A DNA stretch of 64,000 bases, taken from Legionellales bacterium (GTDB lineage Bacteria > Pseudomonadota > Gammaproteobacteria > JABCZS01). Position 1 is the first letter of the stretch, and each line of letters begins with the position of its first letter. Below are positions 30,001 through 33,000 of the stretch, piece by piece. The DNA lies in NCBI GenBank assembly GCA_041660525.1, contig JBAZWD010000001.1, positions 224,022-288,021 on the forward strand, written 5' to 3'. Position numbers: made by a program.

Positions 30001-33000
30001 TTATTCCGTTATTAATTGCAACAGGACCTGGCGCAGCATCACGTTTTAATATTGGCTTGGTCATTGCTTCGGGTATTTCTATCGGAACATTGTTTACATT
30101 ATTTGTGTTGCCAGCCATGTATATCATGCTTGCAAAAACGCATAAACCTGAGGAAATTATAACGGTTTAACTGTCCTTCACTTTATGCTGGCGTAGAAAA
30201 ATAGCGAGCAGTAATGCGATAATAAAACAGACGCCTGCTGCTAGCATAGGTAATTTCATATAAAAACTCGCGATAACTCCGGAAATAATGGGAGCTAGAG
30301 TCCAAGCGATACTTTTTACAACACCTGCTACGCCCATAATATGACCTTGATGTTGCTCGCTCGCCGCATCTGAAAATAAACTTAAACTCGTGGTATAAAC
30401 AAATCCTCCACCGATGCAAAAAGGAATAATGGCCAGCCAAAATAAATAAAATACAGATAATTGAATACTGATCCAAATGCTCACGCTTAAAAATAATAAA
30501 CCCAATAATAAAATTTTCTTCAATCCTAAATAGGTTAATAAGGGTCTAACCATTAAAGGAATAGACACCATAAAAATAAAGGCAACAAAAGACATAAATA
30601 AACCGACCTGCGCAGAATCGGCATTAAAATAAGTTTGTAAATACACCGGCGCAAATTGGAAAAAGAAATTCCAGCCTAAAGTAAATAAAAAATAAATTAA
30701 AGCTAGCTGTAAAATATAATGATTTTTCAGAAGTTTTAAATCGGATAATGCTATGGTATTTGCTGAGAAATCCTTTTTAATAAAAGTTTCTTTAAAGAAA
30801 ATTTGCAAAAAAATAAGGGCTACGAACCCCAAAAATGCGGTGGCAATAAAAGGCGTATAGGTGGTGAAAAATGGTAATACATCATTGCTCGATAACAATC
30901 CGCCCAGTACCGGGCCGAGTACAAAGCCTAATGTATTTGCGACGACGATGGCGCTAATATTTTTCGCTTTTTCAATACTGCCTTTACTGATATCGGCCAT
31001 GGATGCTTGTGCAATTACGTGACAGCCAGCGGTTAATCCTGCGATCATCCGGCCTAAAATGATCAACCACAACGTTTGCAAAATAATTCCGCAGGTTAAT
31101 ACGATAAATCCGCAACAAAAACCCACTAAACAACCGGTTAATGCTTTTTTGCGCCCAATGCGATCAGATAGTTTTCCTATGTTAAGCGATCCAATTCCCA
31201 TAAAAAAAGGGTATACAGCAAATACCAAGCCTAAATAAAATAATCTTTTATCGTAAGAGATTTCTGCATCAAATAATGTACTTTGAGGGTCAAGAAAGTA
31301 ATATGCCAAGGTTGGGTAAATTACCCCCAAACCAATAGCATCGATGAGGATAATAAATAATAATGTAAAACGCGATAACAATAGCGTCATGCGGGCGCGG
31401 TAATTTTATTAGGGACAAATAAATGATGATCTTCAATATCGCGAATGGTTTTGATATCATTTTCAATCACAGCCATGTCTTCATGAATTAATAATATCCA
31501 GCCCGGCGAAGTCAGTAAATCTATGGTTTTAGGCAAAATGCCATCGCCAGAAAATTTATTCATACTAAAACTAGGTAATTGTTTAATTAATTGCCATGCA
31601 TTTTCATTTACGATACGGTTTGCATGTCTGACTTGGTGTGAGACACAGGCCATATTTTTATGCAGTATGTAAGGTGTTGCTGCATGTTGCATAAAAAGTT
31701 TGCGATCAACAAAAGCTTCTGCGGTTAAAGAAATTTGGGTATTGCCTAAAACTTGTTTTTGCAATGTATTCGGAATACCAAGCCCCATGATGCGTCCATT
31801 GACTTCAATTAAAACAGGACCATTTTTTGTCAGCAAAACTTCGCTGTGAGCTGGGCCTTGTTGAAAACTAAGCGCATTGATTACGTTTATAATATACGTT
31901 GACAAAATTTCTTGTAGGGCGCCTTGCGCAGGTAATAATACCAATTTATCATAAATAATATTTTTACTATGCACTTTATGGGCTTGCCAAATATCGCTGA
32001 CATAATGATGACCATCACAAGATACCGTATTTACGATATATTCTTCACCTTGCAAAAAAGGTTGTGCCATGATTTCACCATAACGATGACCTAAAAAACT
32101 CGTTTGATTTAATAAGGCATCTAATGCTACGGTTACTTCATCAATATTATTACAGATTGATAAACCTTCTGTTGCAGCACCATTGATAGGTTTGATGATA
32201 ATAGGCCAAGCATCATGTAAATAAGCCCACGCCATGATTTCTTCGGGATCATTTGATTTTAAATCTTTGATATGCGCAAGGTTATGCGCCGCTAAACATT
32301 TCGCCATTAAATGTTTATCACGCCGCTGTATGCTGGTGGCTAAATCATTTTGTTTTAAACCTAAACAATAAGCAATTTCATCAGCAATAATGACCCCAGG
32401 GTCACTTCCTGCAACAACACATGCAATGGGCAATGATGCTAATTGCTCAATGATTTTATTGATATCGTCTTTTTCTTGAATGTCGATGACAAAGTCTTGG
32501 GGTTGATAAGTGCTTTTATAAAAGTCTGCTTTTTCGCCGGGACTGGATACATGAATGCATTCATAGCCGCGACTGATAAATTCCGCTGCTAGATAGCGAC
32601 TGGTGCTGTAAGCATCAACGATGACACAATATTTTTTATTCATGTCAGTATTATAGCACTAAGTTATTTGTAAATCTGGCTTCACTTGTAATAATGCTCG
32701 GTGAACTAAGTGTTGAATATGTTGCAAACTGGCTATATTTTCAGCTTCAAAGCGTACAACTAAGCAAGGTGTTGTATTCGAGGCACGTACAATAGCCCAA
32801 CTGTCTGGAAACTCTACTCGCAAACCGTCGATCGTAATGATCTTTGCGCCAGGAAAATTCGCTGTTTTTAATAACTTTTCCATAAAAATAAATTTTTCAC
32901 CATCTGCAATGGGAATATTGATTTCAGGTGTGTTTAAACTATTAGGTAAGCTTTGCCAAACTTGCGTTAACGAGGCTTGCCTTGAAAGTAGCTCTATCAT

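Follow-up and report, generated by a model that had tools for sequence, protein, structure and literature searches.

We analyzed a 64,000-nucleotide stretch of contig JBAZWD010000001.1 (positions 224,022 to 288,021, forward strand) from the Legionellales bacterium assembly GCA_041660525.1, referred to below as the window, and focused on two adjoining genes that encode an ATP-grasp ligase and a transporter of the major facilitator superfamily (MFS). In the source genome, that of an uncultured member of the Legionellales, the pair is annotated just as "ATP-grasp domain-containing protein" and "MFS transporter." The pair consists of the following features:

31387..32643, minus strand: ligase gene, 418 residues, ATP-grasp (open reading frame [ORF], PF13535 match with E 4.9e-13, and PRK07206 match)
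30167..31390, minus strand: MFS gene, 407 residues, DHA1/Tet-like, 12 transmembrane segments, putative exporter (ORF and MFS_1 match)
31387..31390, minus strand: ATGA stop/start overlap of the ligase and MFS genes (junction sequence read)

The junction reads GCG CCC GCA TGA CGC, and the four bases ATGA are common to the TGA stop of the ligase gene and the ATG start of the MFS gene. A first-pass annotation, made from the sequence alone, had described the two genes as a possible cassette for the synthesis and export of a small peptide or metabolite. The features on which it drew are borne out. The 418-residue protein carries both ATP-grasp motifs that had been read in it (IIKPINGAATEG at residues 149-160 and LIEVNGR at 278-284), and the ligase stop overlaps the MFS start in the ATGA manner described. 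Twelve separate hydrophobic segments in a hydropathy scan agree with the 12 transmembrane segments assigned to the transporter, and ORFs and family matches confirm that the pair lies downstream of coaBC, dut, and pmm on the same strand.

Family placement of the ligase and the transporter

The ligase matches two Pfam domain models, PF13535 (ATP-grasp_4; 49.4 bits, cut-off 27) and PF02655 (32.8 bits, cut-off 23.2). It also scores above the cut-off of the curated NCBIfam model PRK07206 (NF005543) over residues 3-409 (332.5 bits against 302, E 2.9e-99). This subfamily also holds DdaF and a solved protein deposited as "L-amino acid ligase" (30vh, 355 bits with the same model). The second NCBIfam match is the model for DdaF, the dapdiamide A synthase (NF041595), with 239.3 bits against an equivalog cut-off of 840; at this score, and with none of ddaA-E, ddaG, and ddaH present at the locus, assignment as a DdaF equivalog was rejected. 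Models of housekeeping enzymes scored far under their cut-offs: 29.4 bits against 288 for PurD, 15.5 against 404 for the D-Ala-D-Ala ligase Ddl, and 15.5 against 143 for RimK. The CPSase-like PRK12767 gave at most 24.5 bits against cut-offs of at least 218, and the Pfam model GARS_A matched weakly (26.5 bits, cut-off 27). Clustering with a housekeeping subfamily, the outcome that the first-pass annotation had named as speaking against its reading, was not seen.

Comparison with solved proteins gave nearly the same ranking by sequence profile and by fold. By sequence, the best solved match is 30vh (E 3.9e-58, residues 5-404), followed by BL00235 and RizA. A profile built from 39 homologs ranks 30vh first (434 bits), then BL00235, RizA, BacD, and 4dim, a PDB chain deposited as PurD. 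We built an AlphaFold model of the ligase on the homolog alignment (predicted local distance difference test [pLDDT] 93.8, predicted template modeling score [pTM] 0.92) and searched it with Foldseek against a PDB copy that has entries to April 2026 and is without 30vh, which the fold ranking therefore excludes. The order of matches was BL00235, RizA, 4dim, BacD (YwfE), and then PurK and other PurD chains, and all top fold matches are ATP-grasp enzymes.

Six residues are invariant in the 39-sequence alignment: K110, K151, Q194, E268, E280, and R284. The last three align with E268, E281, and R285 of RizA/RhiM. In RizA, the two glutamates are the two Mg2+ ligands and R285 is the arginine that holds the carboxylate of the first substrate, and mutagenesis found these residues to be essential (PMC13579937). 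The window protein is thus marked as an ATP-grasp enzyme by its domain models, its fold, its ATP-binding lysines, its two Mg2+-binding acidic residues, and its catalytic arginine. RizA's specificity residue D376 aligns with a position inside a TSPG loop that is conserved family-wide, and this position is not discriminating. The profile search that the first-pass annotation had proposed places the protein with the L-amino-acid ligases, as PRK07206 is passed and 30vh, BL00235, RizA, and BacD are the best matches. On the evidence of sequence and modeled fold, we assign the ligase to the L-amino-acid-ligase branch, with that activity as its predicted function.

Within this branch the ligase stands far from its named relatives, with pairwise identities of 31% to DdaF and 30% to 30vh, and the PRK07206-type family as a whole has the shape of a star of lineages at 30-40% identity. 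Close relatives are few. Only six are present in 5.8 billion protein clusters (50-90% identity), after which identities are 38% or lower. An exhaustive HMMER search of 1.84 billion representatives returned 1016 family members at E <= 1e-30, including one representative of the clade, and the next-best protein beyond the clade was 42% identical. One of the close relatives (P0006, 50% identity, 480 residues, on a contig of 1573 nucleotides) has a 60-residue Ser/Thr-rich C-terminal extension that continues to the contig end; this extension could be a read-through or frameshift into the next gene.

The partner protein matches MFS_1 with 144.5 bits against a cut-off of 33.4 (E 4.8e-42). Its best NCBIfam matches, to Tet(A/B/C), further Tet classes, and the Bcr/CflA efflux families, all stay well below their cut-offs; a Tet(A/B/C) equivalog (NF012174) was rejected at 112.9 bits against 475. 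The nearest solved structure is that of the efflux pump NorA, and named relatives carry TCR/Tet or DHA1 annotation. We compared the protein with the consensus forms of motif A (GxLxDrxGrkk), motif B (an arginine in transmembrane segment 4), and motif C (GxxxGPxxGG in transmembrane segment 5). All three are present, as GKLSDRIGRKK (motif A), R114..G118 in LGRMIAGLTAG (motif B), and GFVLGPVLGG (the antiporter motif C), and they are kept in orthologs and in next-tier relatives. The protein thereby resembles the DHA1 antiporters TetA, NorA, Bcr, and YdeE, which are its best family and structure matches and share the 12 transmembrane segments and the three motifs. It differs from the DHA1 efflux equivalogs in missing every NCBIfam cut-off by a wide margin. 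In the established MFS literature, motif C is characteristic of drug:H+ antiporters and is not found in symporters. By sequence, then, the transporter is of the DHA1/Tet-like drug:H+ antiporter type, and the antiporter specificity of motif C is our main argument that it would work in the direction of efflux.

Conservation, surroundings, and expression signals of the pair

We located the loci of relatives by an alignment-based scan of genome contigs. Five close relatives have readable context, with identities to the window proteins and flanking genes as follows:

P0001: ligase 90%, MFS 89%; flanks as in the window (pmm and RND)
P0002: ligase 65%, MFS 64%; flanks AAA_14 and RND
P0003: ligase 58%, MFS 57%; flanks DUF1016 and a PI-PLC-like gene
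P0004: ligase 56%, MFS 57%; flank SDF
P0005: ligase 55%, MFS 60%; flanks GST, RelE/HTH, and an integrase remnant

In all five, the ligase gene is followed by an orthologous MFS gene even as the flanking genes differ, so the pair behaves as a syntenic unit, the property that the first-pass annotation had proposed checking across genomes. The identities of the two proteins fall in parallel along this series. A sixth MFS ortholog (60%) likewise overlaps by 4 nucleotides the ORF ahead of it, which is truncated where the contig ends. Across relatives, the junction takes the form of a 4-nucleotide overlap, a 1-nucleotide overlap, or a gap of 2 or 5 nucleotides, and it never exceeds 5 nucleotides. 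No Shine-Dalgarno-like sequence precedes the MFS ATG in the window or in the relatives' junctions examined. Because the junction is overlapping or short and the MFS start lacks such a sequence, the transporter may be translated by termination-reinitiation, that is, co-translated with the ligase.

No third gene is conserved beside the pair in the five readable contexts, and in particular no biosynthetic or precursor-making gene is shared among them. A multi-gene cluster of the bacilysin type was rejected on the same grounds, as the flanks of the five cassettes have no biosynthetic gene in common. A 264-residue ORF upstream of the cassette in one relative (locus L088) was considered as a third gene and rejected; it belongs to no Pfam family and has no homolog in the other loci. 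A graspetide or other ATP-grasp system for ribosomally synthesized peptides with post-translational modifications (RiPPs) was likewise rejected, since no precursor-peptide gene adjoins the ligase and the RimK family scores 15 bits. There is no room for such a gene beside the ligase in the window, with 15 nucleotides upstream and, at the other end, the overlapping MFS gene followed by an RND gene. These observations support a minimal two-gene ligase-exporter cassette that contains no precursor-making enzymes.

The features that surround the pair in the window are as follows:

32659..34080, minus strand: pmm, directly upstream, its stop 15 nucleotides ahead of the ligase ATG
34010..34465, minus strand: dut, upstream of the ligase gene
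34446..35639, minus strand: coaBC, upstream of the ligase gene
35649..36803, minus strand: DUF4143/AAA_14 ATPase gene, with a 9-nucleotide gap to coaBC
32650..32658, minus strand: TGCTATAAT, a perfect extended -10-like element whose hexamer ends 6 nucleotides before the ligase ATG
24363..30170, plus strand: tripartite efflux operon (OMF-MFP-RND), convergent, its stop and the MFS stop overlapping by 4 nucleotides (30167..30170)

The DUF4143/AAA_14 gene, coaBC, dut, pmm, the ligase gene, and the MFS gene thus form one packed run of six same-strand genes, of which the first four are context and lie outside the cassette. The synteny of hemE, a Trp/Tyr permease gene, AAA_14, the cassette, and RND seen in the window recurs in the 65% relative, but the coaBC-dut-pmm block differs: in this relative (locus L089), the AAA_14 homolog is inverted and directly abuts the cassette, and coaBC-dut-pmm does not lie between them. 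The RND gene is convergent to the cassette in L089 also, the 90% relative (locus L085) shows only a cut convergent ORF, and more distant relatives are without a convergent RND gene.

In these relatives, a tRNA gene takes a recurring place near the pair. The cassette starts about 110 nucleotides from a tRNA-Arg(CCU) gene in P0003 and P0004, and in P0005 the same tRNA gene lies 3 kb downstream, adjoining an integrase fragment. The tRNA-Arg(CCU) genes by the cassette in these three relatives are at the following positions:

L081, 7819-7893
L083, 2960-3034
L086, 1-52 (cut)
L088, 6810-6884

In L088, an integrase fragment (Arm-DNA-bind_3), RelE/HTH, and DUF2971 occur alongside the tRNA gene, a hint of an island linked to that tRNA; no tRNA gene lies in the window. 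From the differing flanks and tRNA positions across relatives, we conclude that the cassette has changed location several times. An origin in an island is possible. The guanine-plus-cytosine content of the pair, overall and at third codon positions, equals that of its neighbors and gives no compositional sign of recent transfer.

A short sequence element accompanies the cassette in each setting. In every lineage, the pattern TGCTATAnT (cGCTATAtT in one of them) precedes the ligase start by 6-47 nucleotides, at approximate positions 5240-5250 in L089, 120-130 in L086, 1260-1270 in L088, and 7960-7970 in L081, and it occurs only three times on both strands of the 64-kb window. No ribosome-binding site lies between TGCTATAAT and the ligase ATG, and with the 6-nucleotide spacing a transcript starting from this element would therefore be leaderless or nearly so. 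TGCTATAAT is a candidate promoter of the cassette, which by this reading would bring its own promoter even behind pmm. Beyond the -10-like element, L086 and L088 have TTAGCATTGT..CTTACTTTA in common, which could be a conserved 5' leader and matches nothing in Rfam. Rfam matches were absent from the window and limited to tRNAs in the related loci, with no riboswitch among them. Upstream of five cassettes, a Fur-box search that allowed up to 5 mismatches in 19 positions found nothing, and thus gave no hint of iron regulation or of a siderophore role.

Predicted function of the cassette

We consider it probable, with real room for doubt, that the pair is a self-contained two-gene cassette for the synthesis and export of a dipeptide-like compound. 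This agrees with the overall reading of the first-pass annotation, to which the family placement of the ligase and the synteny of the pair as a unit both lend support. From the family membership and the intact catalytic residues, the ligase would begin with an ATP- and Mg2+-dependent phosphorylation of one substrate at its carboxylate; this first substrate would most likely be a common amino acid, or something closely derived from one, present in the cytoplasm. The resulting acyl phosphate would then be attacked by the amine of a second amino acid to yield a dipeptide-like amide. As no conserved neighbor makes a special precursor, both substrates should be common metabolites. The MFS protein would be translated by way of the ATGA overlap and, as an H+ antiporter of the DHA1 type, would expel the product across the inner membrane. 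One may speculate that the adjoining RND/OMF pump carries the product further, as an outer-membrane leg or second export step; its position could also reflect shared synteny only.

Ligases encoded with an exporter are already familiar as a kind of system; the novelty here lies in a rare and divergent clade, confined to Legionellales-like bacteria, that is reduced to two genes. The best-known parallel is bacilysin synthesis in Bacillus subtilis, where BacD (YwfE) is likewise an ATP-grasp ligase with a dedicated exporter and has the same Glu/Glu/Arg catalytic layout. BacE, the exporter encoded with BacD, expels bacilysin and protects the producer (PMC9147277). In contrast to the window ligase, BacD has 472 residues, and the two are about 15% identical in structural alignment. 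Bacilysin also requires bacA, bacB, bacC, bacF, and bacG for anticapsin, whereas the window cassette has no conserved precursor genes and a Gram-negative Legionellales host. In the ddaA-I cluster of Pantoea agglomerans, DdaF belongs to the same PRK07206 subfamily (31% identity over 96% of the length) and the cluster ends in a transporter gene; it differs in comprising nine genes that make fumaramoyl-diaminopropionate (fumaramoyl-DAP) and in having a transporter of the EamA/DMT type, not MFS.

The solved L-amino acid ligase 30vh/30vq (419 residues) is the closest solved relative by sequence and passes PRK07206, but it is just 30% identical to the window ligase. In Pantoea ananatis, HilD, a carboxylate-amine ligase, adjoins an MFS protein, HilE, and the likeness to the window pair is one of family and gene order. 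For the hil operon, ligation of a dipeptide antibiotic by HilD (PF13535) and its export by HilE (PF07690, MFS) were proposed (PMC3684760). That operon differs in also encoding dioxygenases and a reductase that make an unusual isoleucine derivative. Genome mining has also turned up stand-alone ATP-grasp ligases, among them RSp1486a, plu1440, BL00235, and TabS, each of which couples two unprotected amino acids with a specificity of its own (PMC6920838). Unlike the window ligase, these were characterized in vitro. To our knowledge, the natural roles of several such ligases have not been established, and we know of no report that any of these four is translationally coupled to an MFS gene or comes from Legionellales.

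Several observations weigh against an export cassette. The main reason for caution is LdmS of Staphylococcus, an L-amino-acid ligase that acts in primary sulfur amino acid metabolism and does not make a secreted product (PMC9486568). The direction assigned to the MFS protein is a reading of its motifs. At 30-31% identity to any characterized ligase, substrate specificity cannot be transferred, and the substrates are not predictable from sequence. The nearest outgroup ligase, P0250 (42% identity), has no coupled MFS gene within the 148 nucleotides downstream of it on a short contig, and next-tier MFS relatives (31-34%), such as one in Legionella birminghamensis, have no ligase neighbor; the strict pairing thus characterizes this particular clade. 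In the window, the pair follows a housekeeping gene run after 15 nucleotides, with no terminator detected between them, and scans for consensus promoters and terminators did not rise above shuffled sequence (31 against 25.7 +/- 5 and 9 against 7.1 +/- 3.3).

The same architecture would also serve for detoxification or self-protection. The ligase could cap a toxic amino acid analog, whether its own, the host's, or that of competitors, and the MFS protein could then remove the conjugate. Ligation of tabtoxinine-beta-lactam by TblF acts as self-protection. Self-detoxification by ligation was proposed for HilD (PMC3684760), and BacE confers resistance on its producer besides efflux (PMC9147277). 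In the five contexts, however, the surroundings of the cassette include no conserved toxin-precursor genes, and we regard this role as unlikely.

It is quite improbable, in our estimate, that the transporter works inward, importing a substrate such as an amino acid in the manner of the Pht-type MFS proteins of Legionella so that the ligase traps it inside as an amide. Legionellales rely on imported amino acids, many of their MFS proteins are importers, and a Trp/Tyr permease gene lies near the cassette in the two syntenic genomes. Against this, the window protein has the antiporter motif C and resembles the Tet, NorA, and Bcr efflux families.

We give equally little credence to an intracellular role, in which the dipeptide is used inside the cell and the transporter, a drug pump of general type, is linked to the ligase only by a common transcript. 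The metabolic ligase LdmS (PMC9486568), the attachment of the pair to a housekeeping gene run in the window, and the ligase-free next-tier transporters are all compatible with such a role. It does not readily account for the strict co-inheritance of the two genes, which extends over five differing contexts with junctions of at most 5 nucleotides, no Shine-Dalgarno-like sequence, and parallel divergence.

A housekeeping ATP-grasp function (PurK, PurT, PurD, D-Ala-D-Ala ligase, or RimK), to which the weak GARS_A similarity and the PurK and PurD structures lower in the fold list might point, is effectively refuted by the scores given above, by the L-amino-acid ligases outranking PurK and all PurD-deposited chains except 4dim in profile and fold, and by the great rarity of the clade.

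Small-molecule biosynthesis is barely described in Legionellales, and host manipulation is normally ascribed to secreted proteins. If the cassette does make and export a dipeptide-like compound, this precursor-free two-gene unit would be among the simplest routes to a secreted peptide metabolite, and its ligase, about 30% identical to known enzymes, would bring a new and divergent specificity to the set of L-amino-acid ligases employed in enzymatic dipeptide synthesis. If the product were a trivial dipeptide without a role, the cassette would be merely one more ligase-pump pair lacking an assignment. A bolder proposal, which we put forward only tentatively and hold to be doubtful on balance, is that a small clade of protist- or host-associated Legionellales makes an undescribed secreted metabolite of the dipeptide type from ordinary amino acids and uses it against competitors or on the host cell, the two genes being a portable unit that brings its own promoter and has relocated among loci.

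Related ligase loci and minor observations

The first-pass annotation had stated that L-amino-acid ligases are typically paired with an MFS exporter. MFS_1 is indeed the commonest immediate downstream neighbor in the wider family, but "typically" overstates the case, as it was found at no fewer than 7 of 71 family loci and other members adjoin DMT/EamA exporters. The loci were counted with crude longest-ORF calls, an unreliable procedure where actinomycete loci of high GC are concerned, and the MFS count is a lower bound.

Distant family members (30-36% identity) lie in small biosynthetic clusters, often with a transporter of varying type. In an uncultured Coxiellaceae locus (L005, 5578-10494), an AurF-like di-iron protein is encoded with a PRK07206 ligase (35%) and an unrelated MFS protein, with a ThiF-rhodanese gene further upstream. 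The locus resembles the clusters of a di-iron oxidase and a free-standing ligase described for mangotoxin (PMC13185094). A Chengkuizengella locus combines a pyridoxal phosphate-dependent decarboxylase, an aminotransferase, a ligase, and an MFS protein. With the MFS protein of the window, those of the Coxiellaceae and Chengkuizengella loci share only 19-21% identity, and the ligase-exporter design has therefore been assembled repeatedly and not inherited as a pair. On plasmid pl83 of Bacillus mycoides (L092, 4101-8814), a HalD-type amino acid halogenase, a PRK07206 ligase, an overlapping EamA/DMT transporter, and an amino acid permease probably form a cluster for a halogenated dipeptide. In Burkholderia, an MFS gene overlaps a family ligase gene, and plasmids of Pantoea and Rahnella carry a TauD dioxygenase, an MFS protein, and three ATP-grasp genes.

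The family also varies in domain architecture. Members P0017-P0027 (677 residues) are fused to an N-terminal S-adenosylmethionine-dependent methyltransferase, and in two cyanobacterial loci (L004 and L012) the ligase is flanked by a flavin adenine dinucleotide-dependent oxidoreductase and a separate methyltransferase. Four members (P0249, P0251, P0252, and P0254) are tandem double ligases of 800-1000 residues. A further group (P0053-P0120) consists of versions of about 560 residues (28-30% identity) with about 150 extra residues; these come mostly from metagenome assemblies, and the named hosts are Prevotella, Methanobrevibacter, and Saccharofermentans.

Beyond the efflux operon, the window also encodes a 545-residue protein (22475..24112, minus strand) with Sel1 repeats, a long low-complexity linker, and a C-terminal NOV_C (NO VEIN-like) domain, which looks like a eukaryote-like or effector-type protein.

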